Positions 34,974-46,843 of a stretch of DNA of 64,000 bases are shown here, piece by piece (position 1 is the stretch's first letter; each line of letters begins with the position of its first letter). The notes below the pieces were generated by a model that was not told where the DNA came from, did no database searches, and was given only the letters and a program-made list of their open reading frames with translations. Made by a program: the position numbers and the translations under genes. Source of the DNA: an uncultured Bacillota bacterium (lineage in GTDB: Bacteria > Bacillota > Clostridia > Acetivibrionales > DTU013); NCBI GenBank assembly GCA_942493145.1, contig OW818679.1, positions 4,062,584 through 4,126,583 on the forward strand, in the 5' to 3' direction.

Positions 34974-35222
34974 TCCCTTTTTTATAAGTATAGTGTCGGC
35001 AAACGCCTTTTAAATATCCTTCTGATGGAAAACGCAAATTTACGCAAAATAACAATACGTTCTACAAAAAACAAGAAATGGTTATGCAACTTTATAAATA
35101 ATATTATCATACCATGAGAATATTGCAACATAAAAATCAATGCCTTGACAACAGCTGGCTACACTGCTTCAAGTACTTCAACTATAGGTGAATCCTTTGA
35201 GAAAGCTTCTGCATAAAAACTC

Positions 35223-35268
35223 AGCCGGCTGGATGATCTGTCTCATACAGCAGACCATCCAGCCGGCT
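35223..35268 (-). terminator. Terminator after the spoIIID 3' segment (bidirectional-looking)
   Basis: An 18-bp stem (agccggctggatgatctg / cagaccatccagccggct, one mismatch) has T-rich flanks on both strands. Confidence 0.6.
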
Positions 35269-35300
35269 TTTAAACTTCAAATATTTTATCAGGATCTTTA

Positions 35301-35469
35301 TCAGCCTGCCTTCGTAGTGCCTCCCTGGTATTTTGCCCTGGTTGCCTCTCCGCCTCTGATATGCCTCTCCGCCTTGTTCTCTTCAAGAACCATCCTTACA
35401 TGGACAGCAAGCTCAGGTTTAGCCCTGTTTAACCTTTCAGTAACATCTTTGTGGACGGTTGATACAAAT
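35301..35469 (-). CDS. spoIIID: spoIIID 3' segment (C-terminal 49 codons plus stop) of a split gene
   Basis: Not in the ORF track. The minus strand reads (ST)VH KDVTERLNRAKPELAVHVRMVLEENKAERHIRGGEATRAKYQGGTTKAG*. This matches the conserved second half of SpoIIID (HKD.TERL...RH.RGGEAT). It has no start codon of its own. Confidence 0.85.
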
Positions 35470-35506
35470 TGTAATTTAATTGTTGTCTCAACTATTAAAT
35501 TTTCTA

Positions 35507-37033
35507 TTATATTTTCTTTAGTTGGACAGTTACCTCTCCTTCAGGGTTGACTGTTATCTTCTCAATAATTTGTTTCAGCCCTGCATTATTAAGTGTATTA
35601 TCATCCATGATGTTTTCAATGGAATAAAGCAGCTGATCTATTCGTGCTTTTACAATGTCAGGTTTTGAAACATCGTCACCGATTAAATCCAGGTTTTTCT
35701 CATGAGCATTGATCTCTTTGTCAATGGGCTCAAGCTTTAATTGAAGTTCTGACTTTGAAATGATTCCGTCTGTGAATAAATCGAGGGTTTTTTCTCGCTT
35801 CTTTTTAAGCCGGGTTATCCTTTTATTAATGTCTTTAGCATTTAAAGCCCCTGTTTGCAGATCCTTTTCCGCATAAATTCTTTTGAATTCCTTTTGTGTC
35901 CTGTCAAAAAACGCTTTTTTATCTGAAATGACAGATGTGAAATACCCCCTGATTGATCCAAGAAGTTCCTGTTCGTCAAGTACTGTATTGTTTGAGCAGC
36001 TGCTTTTGCCGTGAACGTTTCTTCCGGAGCAGATCCATCTGTAATATGTGTTTGCGTAGGTTGCCGTATACCTGCGAAAGCTGTAACCGCATTCAGCACA
36101 TTTTATAATCGTTGAGAAAAGATGCCTGTTGCTTTGCCTCGTTCTGTTCACTTTGAAATCTGTATGCCGTTGCTTCAATATCGTCTGTGCCTTTTCGAAG
36201 GTCCCCCGGTCAATTATCGCAAGGTCCGGATATTCGTGTACTATCCATTCCTCCCTGTCCCTGTTCTTTCTTTTAGAGGTAAGATAGTCGGTTATCTCCT
36301 GCTTTCTGTTGATGACCTTTCCTGTGTACAATTCATTCGCAAGTGTCCTGCATATGGCCGCCTGTGTCCATTGACTATTGCGCTTGGTCCTGAAACCCCT
36401 TTCATTAAGTTCATTTGCTATCCTGAGCGCCCCGAGATCCTGGGTAGTATAAAGTGAGAATATGAGTCTTATTACGTCTGCTTCGATTTCATTAATTTGA
36501 AGTATCGCTTTTTTTCTATTCGTCTCAGTTTTTATCCGAATTGAATCATAACCGAATACACATGTAGGAATGGATCCTTCCTGTCTGCTTCGCTGTTCTT
36601 TACCCCATTTTGTACGTTTTGAGATGTTGCTGCTTTCTTCCTGTGCAAGAAGTGAGAATATTCCCAGTGTCAGTTCGCCCTGCCCGATTACGTTCAGGTT
36701 GTTGGTCAAAAATATGGTGTCAATGCCCAGATCCCTCAGTTCCCGGATATATTGCAGAAAATGCAATGTGTTACGTGAGAACCTGTCCAATCCTTTTGTA
36801 ATTACAATTTCAAACAGCCCTTTGCGTGCATCCTCCATCATTTTAAGGAAGGCTGCCCGGTTCCTGAGCTTAAGACCACTCAGGCCTTCATCAGTGTATA
36901 TGTTGACAAGCTCAAAATTATTGATTTTAGCATAGTCTTCAAAGAAAGTACGCTGATTCTCAAGTGAATTCATTTGTTCATCCTTTGTTGTTGATACCCT
37001 CGTATATGCAGCTATTCGCCTTTTTCCCGTCAT
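35507..37033 (-). CDS. Large serine recombinase (resolvase catalytic domain, recombinase domain, zinc ribbon, coiled coil)
   Basis: From ATG 37033 (AGGAAGGG upstream) the protein begins MTGKRRIAAYTRVSTTKDEQ, which contains the catalytic Ser. DRFSRN, LLAQEESSNISKRTKWG and CAECGYSF...WICSGR...SSC (the Zn ribbon) follow, then a C-terminal coiled coil. The ORF is intact. Confidence 0.9.
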   Translation of the reverse strand: MTGKRRIAAYTRVSTTKDEQMNSLENQRTFFEDYAKINNFELVNIYTDEGLSGLKLRNRAAFLKMMEDARKGLFEIVITKGLDRFSRNTLHFLQYIRELRDLGIDTIFLTNNLNVIGQGELTLGIFSLLAQEESSNISKRTKWGKEQRSRQEGSIPTCVFGYDSIRIKTETNRKKAILQINEIEADVIRLIFSLYTTQDLGALRIANELNERGFRTKRNSQWTQAAICRTLANELYTGKVINRKQEITDYLTSKRKNRDREEWIVHEYPDLAIIDRGTFEKAQTILKQRHTDFKVNRTRQSNRHLFSTIIKCAECGYSFRRYTATYANTYYRWICSGRNVHGKSSCSNNTVLDEQELLGSIRGYFTSVISDKKAFFDRTQKEFKRIYAEKDLQTGALNAKDINKRITRLKKKREKTLDLFTDGIISKSELQLKLEPIDKEINAHEKNLDLIGDDVSKPDIVKARIDQLLYSIENIMDDNTLNNAGLKQIIEKITVNPEGEVTVQLKKI

Positions 37034-37265
37034 TTGTCCCTTCCTGCCTTTCAGTTGCAGCGTTATCTTCTTTTGAAGCTGAAACCTTATCTGCTTTTGA
37101 AGCCGAAACCTTATCTTCTTTTGAAAACGCAATATCACCCTCCGACGAGGCTGTACAGGTATTGAATAAATATATGCTTTTTGCAAGCATGGCAGCCAAT
37201 GCAGCCGGGAGTGTGTCAGGATCTGTGTTTGGATTGATGAATCGGATATTCAAAGGTTTTCTCAT
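36978..37265 (-). CDS. Possible small ORF (95 aa, MRKPLNIRFINPNTDPDTLPAALAAMLAK...) overlapping the recombinase start in another frame
   Basis: ATG 37265 lies 8 nt after GAGG. The ORF contains an 8-aa tandem repeat, (K/E)DKVSASK, encoded by the 24-bp repeats. I recognise no family, so it may not be translated. Confidence 0.3.
   Translation of the reverse strand: MRKPLNIRFINPNTDPDTLPAALAAMLAKSIYLFNTCTASSEGDIAFSKEDKVSASKADKVSASKEDNAATERQEGTNDGKKANSCIYEGINNKG
37063..37130. repeat. Tandem 24-bp repeats (2.8 copies) immediately upstream of the recombinase start codon
   Basis: The copies read ttatcttcttttgaagctgaaacc / ttatctgcttttgaagccgaaacc / ttatcttcttttgaaaacgc. Confidence 0.9.
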
Positions 37266-37284
37266 AGCTTGTACCTCACGATAC

Positions 37285-37295
37285 ATTATATTCAG
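37285..37295 (-). promoter_or_regulatory. Candidate -10-like block CTGAATATAAT upstream of the recombinase unit; the identical 11-mer sits upstream of spoIID (46784-46794)
   Basis: Both copies lie 20-40 nt upstream of a start codon on the minus strand. AATATAAT resembles the sigma-E -10 (cATAcanT) and also the sigma-A TATAAT. No convincing -35 was found. Confidence 0.25.
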
Positions 37296-37344
37296 ACAAG
37301 GCCGTGGACATTACCCTTGTTAACGATGTGCAGCTTTGAAGGGC

Positions 37345-37385
37345 AAATTAAAAGACCACCAGCGGAAAGAGCTCCAATGGTGGCC
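37345..37385 (-). terminator. Terminator after the 583-aa cargo gene, separating it from the recombinase unit
   Basis: On the minus strand, GGCCACCA...TGGTGGTC (one G-U pair) is followed by TTTTAATTT. Confidence 0.5.
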
Positions 37386-37430
37386 TGATACCTTGTTGCC
37401 GGGCCCAGCCAGGCGTAGTTGTCAGCAGAC

Positions 37431-39182
37431 TTATTTGTCAACTGGCTGGATATACGTATTGTCAAATATATTTCCCGTTATATCGATATCATCAATCAAC
37501 CAGGTTTGAACATTTTCACCTTTCACCGCTGTTATCAGCATCCAGTAAGCTGTTCCGAGCCTGGCACCGGATATGCTTTTGGTGGATTTAGCAAGGGGCA
37601 GGACATAGTCCCTCATGTAGGTATTTATAGCTGATTTCGTCATCACCAAAGGAAATGTTTCTATATACCCAACATCATCATAGTAGCTGTACGTGTTTTC
37701 ATAAATATCTGTAAAGTACATGGACTCCAATTCCGGCGAAAGCCTGATGGTCACATGATCAGGGTCCCCAAGTGTTGTTACGTCGATTTTCACAGCTTCA
37801 TATGAAAGGAAGCGATGAGGTTCAACAGACATTACCCTGCCGAAGATATCCTTCTGTCCCCTCCAGTGATTCCAGTACCCGGTCAGGCTGACACCTGTTA
37901 TCTTTAATGATGTCCTTGTAAATGTGCCCCTATACCGGGTATATGAGTTTCCTGCAACGTCGGTGGCTTTCATAAAAAGATAGTATGTGCCGTCGGTTGT
38001 TAATGTTGCTGTATACGAAAATGAATCCACTCCACCGGCACTTATAGCAGTCCATCCCGAAACCGGTACAGCCGTTGAATCAGACCAGGCATGTTCTATT
38101 GAAGCCAGACCACTGCCACCAGTATCTGTTGCAGTAATTATTGCCTCAAGATCATCTGCAGCGACTGATACCGAAGCAGGAGAACAATCAATTTCCGGCG
38201 CAACCCTGTCGATGCTGAAAGGACCGCGAACCCTGGAGAACTCGCCTCCTGCGGCATCACAAGCCATCATGTGCAGGTACCAGATGCCCGTTGTAGCAGC
38301 TGTTGCCGTTGTGCTCAGCTCCGCCACACTTGTAGCAGTTACTGTTGTCCATATTGACGGTGTTTCCGTCGAATCGCTCCAGGCATATTTGATATGGGAT
38401 AAATCAGGTGTAGTATCTACAGCTGTAATCAGGGCAGGTACATTTTCATTTGTCCAATCCTTTTTTACAGGCGTACAATCTATATCCGGCACCAGATTGA
38501 CAAGGTCGGTGGAAAGAGTCAATACGTGGGGCAGGCTTGATGCGCCTTCCATATCAGTCACTACAAGGGACACAAGGTAGGTCTCCCCTTCAGCCCATGT
38601 CGATGGCAAGTCTGTGCAGCTTGTCCAGCTATCGTCATCAACATCCTTCCATTTCCACTCCCAGGAAACAATTCCCCTGTCTGCAAGCGAAATATGGTCA
38701 GGGTCATATGAGTTGTCCGACAATGATGAAATATAGTTCCCCGATGTGTTCAACCCTGTAAAGCCCATATTGAATGCTGCAACCGGCCTTCGATGGGCGA
38801 ATACCGTCATTCCGACCCGGTCTTTACTCCAAAGCTTGTATTCATCAAAGCCTGCATCGCTTTTCGGGTTGTCCTGCACCATGTAGGTTATCTCATATTT
38901 CCCTGTCTGTGTGAAGGTAGTCACCGGTGATGCCCGGCAAATTCCGGAGAAGCTTGCTGTTCCGGTATTGTTTTCAAAATATGAAGGAACATGATCAAAC
39001 CTCCACTTTGAATCATACATTGGATCACCTTCATAGTCGCTATAGTATGTTTTGTATTCAAGAGCATCTTCATCAACTATGGCAAAGGCTTCAACGACAG
39101 TGTCTTTGGGGGTCGCATATTTCGTCCTTAGATCATTTGCAGCTGCAGCATATTGACCGGAATCATACAGTATACCCGCCAC
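37431..39182 (-). CDS. Cargo protein with a PKD-like domain and two ~95-aa Ig-like (OmpL47-type-like) repeats
   Basis: Three things support the call:
- A PKD-like segment: SYDPDHISLADRGIVSWEWKW and GETYLVSLVVTDMEGASS.
- Duplicated modules: IDC.P...AWSDST..P..WT......GTYYLFMKATDVAGN.
- A GTG start with no signal peptide, so the N-terminus may be missing. Confidence 0.65.
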   Translation of the reverse strand: MAGILYDSGQYAAAANDLRTKYATPKDTVVEAFAIVDEDALEYKTYYSDYEGDPMYDSKWRFDHVPSYFENNTGTASFSGICRASPVTTFTQTGKYEITYMVQDNPKSDAGFDEYKLWSKDRVGMTVFAHRRPVAAFNMGFTGLNTSGNYISSLSDNSYDPDHISLADRGIVSWEWKWKDVDDDSWTSCTDLPSTWAEGETYLVSLVVTDMEGASSLPHVLTLSTDLVNLVPDIDCTPVKKDWTNENVPALITAVDTTPDLSHIKYAWSDSTETPSIWTTVTATSVAELSTTATAATTGIWYLHMMACDAAGGEFSRVRGPFSIDRVAPEIDCSPASVSVAADDLEAIITATDTGGSGLASIEHAWSDSTAVPVSGWTAISAGGVDSFSYTATLTTDGTYYLFMKATDVAGNSYTRYRGTFTRTSLKITGVSLTGYWNHWRGQKDIFGRVMSVEPHRFLSYEAVKIDVTTLGDPDHVTIRLSPELESMYFTDIYENTYSYYDDVGYIETFPLVMTKSAINTYMRDYVLPLAKSTKSISGARLGTAYWMLITAVKGENVQTWLIDDIDITGNIFDNTYIQPVDK

Positions 39183-44318: not shown

Positions 44319-44453
44319 TTATGTTACAACCGTGTGGACGGTGCTTTTACTTATTCCAAATTTCCTTGCCGCCGCCCTTACTGTAGTTTTCTTCTCAATG
44401 ATATAATTGGCCAGTTCAACTGCCCTTTCTTCAATATATCCTTTCAACTGCAT
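44319..44453 (-). CDS. spoIIID: spoIIID 5' segment (40 native codons, then 4 element-encoded codons and a stop)
   Basis: Not in the ORF track. ATG 44453 follows GAGGGGG. The translation is MQLKGYIEERAVELANYIIEKKTTVRAAARKFGISKSTVH, then TVVT*. The native part is the SpoIIID HTH up to the SKSTVH recognition helix. Confidence 0.85.
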   Translation of the reverse strand: MQLKGYIEERAVELANYIIEKKTTVRAAARKFGISKSTVHTVVT

Positions 44454-44548: not shown

Positions 44549-44577
44549 TATATATGCCTTTAAAATTAACGATATGA
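44549..44577 (-). promoter_or_regulatory. Sigma-E-like promoter upstream of spoIIID
   Basis: The minus strand reads tCATATc, 14 nt, then CATATATA. The remembered sigma-E consensus is ATATT-N14-CATACAnT. The element lies about 95 nt upstream of the start codon. Confidence 0.4.
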
Positions 44578-45726: not shown

Positions 45727-46749
45727 TTAATTGCTCAACTTTCCCACCTGCTGATTTATTACAACCAGGTCGACGCCAATATAGTAATACTTGAGTATCT
45801 CGCTGTATATGCCTCCCCTTTTGGCAAGATAATTTGCCCCATACTGGCTCATCCCTACACCGTGGCCATACCCATAGGTTGTTATTGTAAGGGTTTCCTT
45901 ATCTGTTTTTTCAATTGCAAAATTGGCTGATTTAAGTTCAAAGAGCACCCGGAATTCGGTACCTTTCATTTCTACATCTGCTACCTTCAAAGTGTCTACC
46001 CTTCCTCCCGAGGTATGGTCAATGATTTTTATACACCTGGGTACATCAATAGCCTCAATATCAATTCCAGGATAAGCGTTATTCATTTTTTTAACAAAGT
46101 CCTTGATTTTTATCTTTATAACATTTCTATATGCTTTAGAGTCCTCTTCTCCCCTGCTTACAACACTCCTGAGATAAGGCACACTAACTCCCTCCCAGAC
46201 TTCTTCACAGTTTTCAGTCCTTCCACCGCTGTTTGAATGGAAAAGTGCATTTGCCGTTTCACCTTCATATTCCAACACTACACCCTTTGTCCCATTTACG
46301 GCCTTTTCTATCCTGCTCCAGTTTCGTGAAGCAAACAGGATACCCCACTTCTTTTTAGCTTCTGCCTTGCTGATCCATGCCTGGCAATGACACGGGTTGG
46401 TACATATGGGTATACCGTCGTGGTCTCCTTCTTTGCATTTGTATGTGCCATTAAGTCTTCCGTATGCAAATGTTCGCGCCGCAACCGCTTGTGCCTTCAA
46501 TGCCTCCAATTCAAAATCCGCCGGCATCTCAGCTGCTACAACCCCTTTTATATATTCTTCCAGGTCCATTATTACCTGCTTTTTTATAACATGATCATAT
46601 ATATTTATTGTCGTTGAATCTACTGTCGGCTGTTCTTTAGCTTTATAAGGCTCATTTTCTACAGACGCCCCGCATCCTCTGACCATTGCCAACGGCAGAA
46701 TAATGATGACCGCCAACATAACAATTGCATATCCCATCAGCTTTTTCAT
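45727..46749 (-). CDS. spoIID: Stage II sporulation protein D (lytic transglycosylase)
   Basis: The protein has a signal anchor and the SpoIID/LytB-domain signatures EMPADFELEALKAQAVAARTFAY, LFHSNSGGRTEN and GHGVGMSQYGANYLA. Confidence 0.9.
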   Translation of the reverse strand: MKKLMGYAIVMLAVIIILPLAMVRGCGASVENEPYKAKEQPTVDSTTINIYDHVIKKQVIMDLEEYIKGVVAAEMPADFELEALKAQAVAARTFAYGRLNGTYKCKEGDHDGIPICTNPCHCQAWISKAEAKKKWGILFASRNWSRIEKAVNGTKGVVLEYEGETANALFHSNSGGRTENCEEVWEGVSVPYLRSVVSRGEEDSKAYRNVIKIKIKDFVKKMNNAYPGIDIEAIDVPRCIKIIDHTSGGRVDTLKVADVEMKGTEFRVLFELKSANFAIEKTDKETLTITTYGYGHGVGMSQYGANYLAKRGGIYSEILKYYYIGVDLVVINQQVGKLSN

Positions 46750-46843
46750 ATTGCCTCCATATTACGGGATTAAAATACAATTAATTATATTCAGCGGTCA
46801 TGTAATTAATTACCTACTTGTCCTTATATCTTCCTTAACCCTG

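Follow-up and report, generated by a model that had tools for sequence, protein, structure and literature searches.

Elements that interrupt sporulation genes

In the textbook case of Bacillus subtilis, the mother-cell regulator SpoIIID turns on the recombinase that repairs sigK, and expression of the recombinase gene spoIVCA is almost completely SpoIIID dependent (PMC517825, PMC6957869). Here we describe an element for which this order cannot hold. It lies in a stretch of 64,000 nucleotides from an uncultured Bacillota bacterium (contig OW818679.1, positions 4,062,584 to 4,126,583; hereafter the window, numbered from its first letter), and it interrupts spoIIID itself, as is also found in at least 19 related genomes. 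Since spoIIID is interrupted, the rearrangement would take place one step earlier than in the sigK case, on sigma-E alone. We propose that an early mother-cell promoter of the sigma-E type, independent of SpoIIID and located in 37266-37345, probably drives an excision unit composed of a small open reading frame (ORF) and the recombinase gene.

The element shares with the skin element of B. subtilis (SpoIVCA, Skr) the predicted developmental excision, the large serine recombinase, a mother-cell regulator gene as target and the involvement of sigma-E (PMC517825, PMC6957869). It differs in the reversed order, excision lying upstream of SpoIIID, and in being 8.9 kb long and non-phage, whereas skin is a 48-kb prophage-like element.

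In Clostridioides difficile the sigK element skinCd has the recombinase CD1231 and the directionality factor CD1234 (PMC5025042). There as here a large serine recombinase is encoded at the element edge, excision rebuilds (in the window, is predicted to rebuild) the gene of a mother-cell regulator, and a small protein without known family is encoded behind a sigma-E-type promoter (in the window, a predicted one) near its start codon. The target here is spoIIID rather than sigK. Moreover, CD1234 needs SpoIIID plus sigma-E, which is impossible where SpoIIID is the product of excision, and CD1231 lies apart from CD1234 under a sigma-A promoter of its own, whereas in the window the small ORF overlaps the recombinase gene and no sigma-A promoter is detectable.

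Other small directionality factors are SprB (58 aa; spsM) of SPbeta and GirX (42 aa; gerE) of the B. cereus element gin (PMC4191935, PMC5595907). The regulated part is often the small factor and not the recombinase, as for SPbeta sprB and C. difficile CD1234, which are transcribed from mother-cell promoters with transcript starts 20 nt (sprB) and 14 nt (CD1234) upstream of the start codon (PMC4191935, PMC5025042). The gin element is non-phage, and its girX and girC are transcribed only in sporulation (PMC5595907). The element in the window is like SPbeta (SprA/SprB) and gin (GirC/GirX) in having a small familyless protein, here a candidate factor (42-58 aa in those systems), whose mother-cell promoter would set the timing; it is further like gin in being non-phage and in the predicted joint, sporulation-only transcription of both genes. 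The targets of SPbeta and gin are late genes of the sigma-K stage, whereas spoIIID is an early regulator. By analogy, the element would work like skinCd, SPbeta and gin but one tier earlier, and so would have to lack the requirement for SpoIIID.

A 'skin-like' element interrupting spoIIID of Ruminiclostridium cellulolyticum was reported by Galperin et al. in one sentence and Table S3 (bioRxiv 10.1101/2022.02.25.481979). It has the same target gene, and homologous recombinases occur in the many-species genus g18 of the same order. The report gives the interruption only, with no promoter, small ORF or regulatory analysis, and sigK is not split in the window's source genome, which sets that genome apart from the one reported. 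Our literature search found no published regulatory analysis of spoIIID-interrupting elements.

The split spoIIID gene

In the window spoIIID is present in two halves on the minus strand, each with one copy of a 10-bp core:

44549..44577, minus strand: predicted sigma-E-type promoter of spoIIID, TCATATC-N14-CATATATA (17.7 bits in the matrix described below), conserved in relatives
44322..44447, minus strand: spoIIID 5' half, ending ...SKSTVHTVVT before a stop codon
44333..44342, minus strand: attL core ACCGTCCACA
35450..35459, minus strand: attR core ACCGTCCACA
35301..35462, minus strand: spoIIID 3' half, residues 35-87

The two cores, ACCGTCCACA on the minus strand, delimit an element of 8,883 bp. 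The 5' half encodes residues 1-38 (44447..44334), followed by TVVT and a stop codon, so that the protein's C-terminal half is missing from it. When the flanks were joined in silico at this short direct repeat, the reading frame was restored, as in intervening elements of the skin, SPbeta and gin type, and the result was an 87-aa SpoIIID that covers positions 1-79 of the 82 of Pfam PF12116 with 133 bits.

Beyond the two halves no further spoIIID homologue was found in the 4.34-Mb genome. Because the halves are the genome's only source of SpoIIID, excision cannot require SpoIIID; no functional SpoIIID is available before excision, and recombinase expression of the SpoIIID-dependent spoIVCA type fails here. 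The original prediction had stated that SpoIIID is a product of excision and that excision cannot wait for it, which these findings bear out. Its further conclusion that the recombinase must be expressed earlier is right in so far as excision cannot depend on SpoIIID but too narrow, since in known systems it is often the small factor that is regulated.

The sigK gene is uninterrupted in the source genome, and a two-step excision cascade via a split sigK was therefore rejected. Two genes score above the cut-off of the curated sigma-K model (356 and 324 bits; G000:C1:1772950-1773609 and G000:C1:4003894-4004571); both lie outside the window and both are uninterrupted, and one may be a paralogue.

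A second way round the paradox appears to be taken in three relatives (G021, G022 and G039), where the element splitting spoIIID carries an intact, divergent spoIIID (L021:2364-2836; L022:5563-5956; L024:13498-13922). These spare genes are 47-61% identical to the SpoIIID halves of the window, whereas the hosts' own halves are 81-89% identical. In L022 the spare spoIIID begins about 40 nt beyond the truncated host 5' half and is preceded by a ribosome-binding site of its own; the host sigma-E promoter could therefore read it. This solution shows the element family under pressure not to disable sporulation.

The promoter region of the excision unit

The recombinase gene lies at the element's edge, 47 nt from the attR core, and its product contains all three Pfam domains of a large serine recombinase. 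The features upstream of it, and those of the spoIID promoter to which they are compared, are:

35507..37033, minus strand: large serine recombinase, 508 aa; ATG at 37033, Shine-Dalgarno sequence GGAAGGG; domains Resolvase, Recombinase and Zn_ribbon_recom
36978..37265, minus strand: small ORF, 95 aa (MRKPLNIRFINPNTDPDTLPAALAAMLAKSIY...), Shine-Dalgarno sequence GAGG at 37277..37274; candidate recombination directionality factor
37285..37295, minus strand: 11-mer CTGAATATAAT, including the -10-like AATATAAT (37292..37285); orthologous to the -10 of the relatives' spoIID
37307..37315, minus strand: -35-like element GGTAAT (37315..37310), in the sigma-E register TAATGTC (37313..37307); GTAAT invariant among the three sequences aligned (this site, L030, window spoIID)
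37344..37386, minus strand: terminator-like hairpin (37386..37353) and U-tract (37352..37344), from RNA folding
37431..39182, minus strand: upstream cargo gene of the ORF list, 583 aa, Ig-like/PKD-like with weak Big_13/PKD matches; stop codon at 37431
46784..46824, minus strand: spoIID promoter, with box GGACAAG (46823..46817), GGTAAT (46814..46809) and CTGAATATAAT (46794..46784); spoIID ATG at 46749

The terminator that the original prediction had placed between the cargo gene and the recombinase unit was found as a stable hairpin with a U-tract downstream of the cargo gene. The hairpin has 9+5 bp and is followed by UUUAAUUU; its folding energy is -25.1 kcal/mol (z = -3.6), and none of 200 shuffled sequences was as stable. 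A simple terminator scan missed it, the stem having an internal mismatch. Rfam gave no match in 35200-38000.

The window has two copies of the 11-mer CTGAATATAAT and no more, each on the minus strand (37295..37285 and 46794..46784), where shuffled sequences lead one to expect 0.06 copies. The identity of the two upstream regions in this 11-mer, noticed earlier, thus stands. Its position has to be restated: the 11-mer does precede the excision unit, but it adjoins the small ORF, the distance to the ATG at 37265 being 19 nt, and lies 251 nt from the ATG of the recombinase. The copy at spoIID ends 34 nt before the ATG. Both sites share GGTAAT-N14-CTGAATATAAT with equal spacing, and GTAAT-N16-GAATAYAAT is found at these two sites only on both strands of the 4.34-Mb genome. 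The relaxed form TAAT-N16-GAATANAAT has four more sites in the genome, with no obvious sporulation genes downstream.

By chance, an 11-mer is common to 1.4% of random pairs of 165-nt upstream regions of the source genome, and an 11-mer plus an in-register 5-mer to about 0.035% of such pairs. The 11-mer alone is marginal after multiple comparisons; the bipartite match is not.

Upstream of spoIID about 23 of 29 relatives have (G/T)CATACT-N13-AATATAnA, and their spoIIID upstream regions have TCATA(T/A)n-N14-CATATATA. Both read as canonical sigma-E layouts with an ATA-type -35 and a CATA- or AATA-type -10; for comparison see the description of C. difficile sigma-E promoters (PMC3789822). Because the layout of the spoIID promoter is kept in these relatives, CTGAATATAAT at spoIID of the window corresponds by orthology to the -10 of a mother-cell promoter that is conserved. 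The -35 of the window spoIID, TAATTAA, is atypical for the clade and of the same kind as TAATGTC of the excision unit. In B. subtilis, spoIID is a sigma-E gene and belongs to the 'pulse' class that sigma-E activates and SpoIIID represses (PMC517825).

A conserved AGGACATAC(C/T)T box was observed about 10-20 nt downstream of the -10 of spoIID in many relatives (e.g. L035, L039, L043 and L047). The window does not have this box, which may be the clade's SpoIIID (repressor) site.

Conservation in related elements

At least 19 other genomes of the order, and one metagenome contig, encode a homologue of the recombinase (33-63% identity) next to a spoIIID fragment. The nearest among 5.8 billion proteins, at the locus L030, is 63% identical and the next one 47%. 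L030 has the same spoIIID-mbl synteny as the window, and the two promoter regions (L030, GTAATtctatcggacatgctcGAATACAATataCCGTGAGGTA; window, GTAATgtccacggccttgtctGAATATAATgtatCGTGAGGTA) align without gaps. Both have GTAAT, GAATACAAT and the Shine-Dalgarno sequence at identical spacings, whereas the spacer has diverged. Two boxes with their spacing are thus conserved at orthologous loci, in L030 at close range and in 21 elements when compared with controls (see below); footprinting of the promoter at close range comprises the one comparison with L030.

Each of these recombinases has a homologous small ORF just upstream, and 21 non-redundant elements with the pair entered a family test. A bipartite matrix was trained only on the host spoIID and spoIIID promoters of relatives and used to score the 110 nt before each small ORF, with 600 upstream regions of the source genome as controls. 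The median best score was 11.6 bits for the elements versus 3.2 bits for the controls (Mann-Whitney p = 1e-10; p = 4e-10 with the window element left out), a p-value that overstates independence because the elements are related by descent, and to that extent counts against the reading given here. The spacing at these sites is usually exactly 14, with 18-61 nt between the end of the -10 and the start codon. Typical examples are GAATAAA-N14-AATATACA, TAATATT-N14-AATATAAT and GCATAGT-N13-AATATATT.

In the source genome the excision unit, at 9.9 bits, scores inside the range of the sigma-E-regulon orthologues (spoIIID, 17.7 bits; spoIIP, 16.9 bits; spoIVA, 14.6 bits; spoIID, 8.9 bits; spoIIIAA, 7.2 bits; spoIIM, 3.0 bits). 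The score of spoIIID is reached by only 17 sites of the genome. A 'TAAT' -35 is also found at spoIIM and spoIID and an 'AATA' -10 at spoIIP, spoIIIAA and spoIID. The -10 form (C/A)ATAnAnT is matched by AATATAAT at 37292..37285, which is identical to the -10 of the window spoIID. The best matches genome-wide include spoIVA, spoIIP and a LysM protein; AT-rich false positives dominate the rest. Discrimination is achieved with the matrix trained on relatives and with no other criterion: 11/15 agreement with the degenerate sigma-E consensus is reached by 65% of the control regions and is uninformative.

Choice of the sigma factor

Several further observations weigh against a sigma-E-type promoter at the excision unit. 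The 9.9 bits of the window site are reached by 5.8% of the control regions, and about 3,160 positions of the genome score as high or higher. The -35 TAATGTC, at N14, agrees with kmATAww (13-15 nt upstream) in 5 of 7 positions and is without the central ATA. The two sites, whose -35 regions were called unconvincing earlier, in fact have GGTAAT in common at the same spacing. The formal matrix scan proposed for 37266-37345 gave a borderline result for sigma-E, and comparison with consensus sequences gave no good match in this region for sigma-K (AC-N16/17-CATAnnnTA), sigma-F or sigma-G. The shared motif as a lead to a sigma-E-type promoter gains from the comparative evidence, but is borderline in the window sequence alone; the putative sigma-factor assignment is therefore drawn from orthology and from the pattern across the family. 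The remaining points on the opposing side each favour a different explanation.

The first of these points is that the -10 of the excision unit contains a perfect sigma-A hexamer, TATAAT (37290..37285). Were this a housekeeping promoter read by sigma-A, small ORF and recombinase would be expressed constitutively at a low level, and excision would be timed otherwise or not be developmental at all. Constitutive expression is indeed described for CD1231, the skin recombinase of C. difficile, and for SPbeta sprA (PMC5025042, PMC4191935), and clear sigma-A promoters on the recombinase occur in some relatives: in L019b, L081, L083, L021, L023 and L074 the small ORF and the recombinase gene are separated by a good promoter of this type (10-11/12), e.g. 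TTGACC-N17-TATAAT. The developmental promoter there belongs to the small gene, and the arrangement is that of C. difficile and SPbeta, in which the recombinase is constitutive and development times the small factor. These sigma-A promoters lie downstream of the small ORF, not upstream of it, and over the family as a whole the regions upstream of the small ORFs show no enrichment of the sigma-A consensus (p = 0.65). At the excision unit itself the -35 matches in only 2 of 6 positions at 18-nt spacing, there is no TGn extension and no TTGACA-like -35 at 16-18 nt, and a promoter scan calls no promoter in 37033-37345 on the minus strand. Moreover, were the recombinase and its excision factor both made constitutively, the germ line would lose the element. 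We consider a sigma-A promoter at this site rather unlikely.

An internal sigma-A promoter between the small ORF and the recombinase gene was not found in the window (8/12), in L030 or in the nearest groups (at most 8-9/12), and in all of these the two genes overlap. The recombinase of the window is most likely co-transcribed with the small ORF from the sigma-E-type promoter.

The second point concerns sigma-H. GGTAAT...TGAAT can be read as AGGAWWT-N-GAAT, and AAGGGTAAT-N15-TGAAT agrees with the sigma-H consensus in 12 of 14 positions at the excision unit and, by manual reading, in 13 of 14 at the spoIID promoter of the window. A promoter of the sigma-H type, or another pre-divisional or stress promoter, would fire in the whole cell at the onset of stationary phase or on a transfer signal. 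In the sigma-H consensus AGG and GAAT are 17-19 nt apart; here the distance is 20 nt, 1-3 nt too long, and 12/14 is reached by 11% of the control upstream regions. L030 has TAGTAAT and hence no AGG, and the spoIID promoters of the relatives are without the AGGA element and have a sigma-E -35. Since in addition spoIID belongs to the sigma-E genes of B. subtilis (PMC517825) and excision before septation would strip the element from the spore, this explanation appears quite improbable.

The third point is that the exact junctions expected after excision, a 34-mer for the rejoined attB (junction ...AAAAGCACCGTCCACAAAGATG...) and a 33-mer for attP of the circle (junction ...GTATCAACCGTCCACACGGTTG...), were absent from public metagenome contigs. 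This would fit a similarity without function, owed to chance or left as a relic, in an element that is no longer excised, with spoIIID a pseudogene and sporulation poor or absent. The frequency of shared 11-mers among random upstream pairs and the borderline matrix score of the window point in the same direction. The bipartite motif, on the other hand, is unique in the genome and kept in L030 despite the divergence of the spacer; the spoIIID halves, the spoIIID promoter, the recombinase and the core of the small ORF are all intact; and the architecture is retained in at least 19 genomes. Loss of function is thus an unlikely explanation.

The small ORF

The small ORF overlaps the start of the recombinase gene by 56 nt. 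Its tail contains a variable, low-complexity stretch:

37053..37124, minus strand: three 24-nt tandem repeats encoding SKEDKVSA x3

The homologues have 39-118 aa. They align over a core of about 35 residues, composed of a hydrophobic strand, a (D/N)P turn and an amphipathic helix with L..xLA..I, whereas the tails are unrelated, low in complexity and lineage-specific. The tail of the small ORF in L030 (L030:2100-2200) is a Cys/Asn-rich run of CNNNC-type repeats.

The subgroups of the small ORF track the identity classes of the recombinase, indicating co-divergence. Synonymous and nonsynonymous codon differences are about equal in number; because nonsynonymous sites outnumber synonymous ones, similar counts argue for purifying selection, which is consistent with a constrained coding core. 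Pfam and NCBIfam contain no family for the small ORF, and its 45 database homologues are all unnamed or annotated as 'hypothetical'. In the AlphaFold model, of low confidence (mean pLDDT 58), the tail is disordered and residues 19-37 form the only helix.

Judged by its position, size and linkage, the small protein is the best candidate for the recombination directionality factor. If this is confirmed, the family represents new, uncharacterised candidate directionality factors for serine integrases, which are useful parts for genome engineering.

Proposed sequence of events

The promoter of the excision unit would consist of the -35-like TAATGTC (37313..37307) and the -10-like AATATAAT (37292..37285), with the transcript starting at about 37278 (predicted range about 37279-37277), and would be insulated from the cargo gene by the terminator. 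In the mother cell, sigma-E alone would switch on the small ORF and the recombinase gene. The small protein and the recombinase would then recombine the ACCGTCCACA cores at 44333-44342 and 35450-35459, the 8,883-bp element would leave as a circle, and the rejoined gene for the 87-aa SpoIIID would be expressed from its own intact sigma-E promoter. With excision placed between sigma-E and SpoIIID, no SpoIIID would be needed. Use of the promoter by sigma-E, co-transcription, the role of the small protein as directionality factor and the mother-cell timing are what we infer. If confirmed, this would be a delay between sigma-E and SpoIIID that nature achieves by DNA excision, and promoter, small factor and recombinase would form a module that can be re-wired to another tier of sporulation.

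The promoter of the excision unit copies the layout of the spoIID promoter in the window: a box-like heptamer, GGTAAT, a 14-nt spacer and CTGAATATAAT. Compared with the SpoIIID box consensus for B. subtilis and C. difficile (PMC517825, PMC5025042), the following speculative boxes can be listed:

37316..37322, minus strand: SpoIIID-box-like TAACAAG, abutting the -35 and centred at about -42
37294..37300, minus strand: SpoIIID-box-like CTTGTCT in the spacer (AGACAAG on the opposite strand), from a pattern scan

At the spoIID promoter of the window the box-like GGACAAG (46823..46817) abuts the -35 in the same way, centred at about -43; in B. subtilis the SpoIIID sites of spoIID overlap the -35 and the -10 (PMC517825). 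Strict SpoIIID boxes are found in 6 of the 21 element promoters versus 8.1% of the controls, at varying positions. Binding of SpoIIID at both promoters is a speculation drawn from 7-mers only. That the promoter of the excision unit might be a functional copy of the spoIID class, turned on by sigma-E and afterwards acted back upon by SpoIIID, is a doubtful extension of the proposal. Were it true, recombinase and factor would be made in a self-limiting pulse, or a latch would keep the factor on and block re-integration; the rearrangement would then be a self-resetting timer between sigma-E and SpoIIID, and a portable module of a widespread element family.

Further observations on related loci

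In L069 (G066:C1:3646262-3647737 and flanks), from a complete 4.1-Mb genome of the same order, the recombinase gene abuts the spoIIID 5' half in convergent orientation; this element seems to have been inserted the opposite way round relative to spoIIID.

The best match of the recombinase in a phage collection was L098, accession MT838016.1 ('Bacteriophage sp.', human faeces). Its recombinase is 42% identical and is directly followed by a spoIIID 3' half, no small ORF being recognised upstream. The sequence is a bacterial chromosomal fragment and not a circle.

In L064 and L065 (G102 and G103) and in L066 (G100), a recombinase with 43-46% identity is accompanied by a homologous small ORF, with no spoIIID fragment within 1.5 kb; target or element size may differ there. 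The small ORF of L064 is identical to DFR58_1489 of Anaerobacterium chartisolvens. In L064 and L065 it stands behind a near-perfect TAATATT-N14-AATATAAT, and L066 has GCATAGT-N13-AATATATT.

The promoter of spoIIIAA in the source genome is predicted as TCATAAAattGGACAAAgcctAATACTTA, about 28 nt upstream of the gene (from about 1464028, G000:C1). Its spacer contains the SpoIIID-box-like GGACAAA, reminiscent of the repression of spoIIIA by SpoIIID in B. subtilis.

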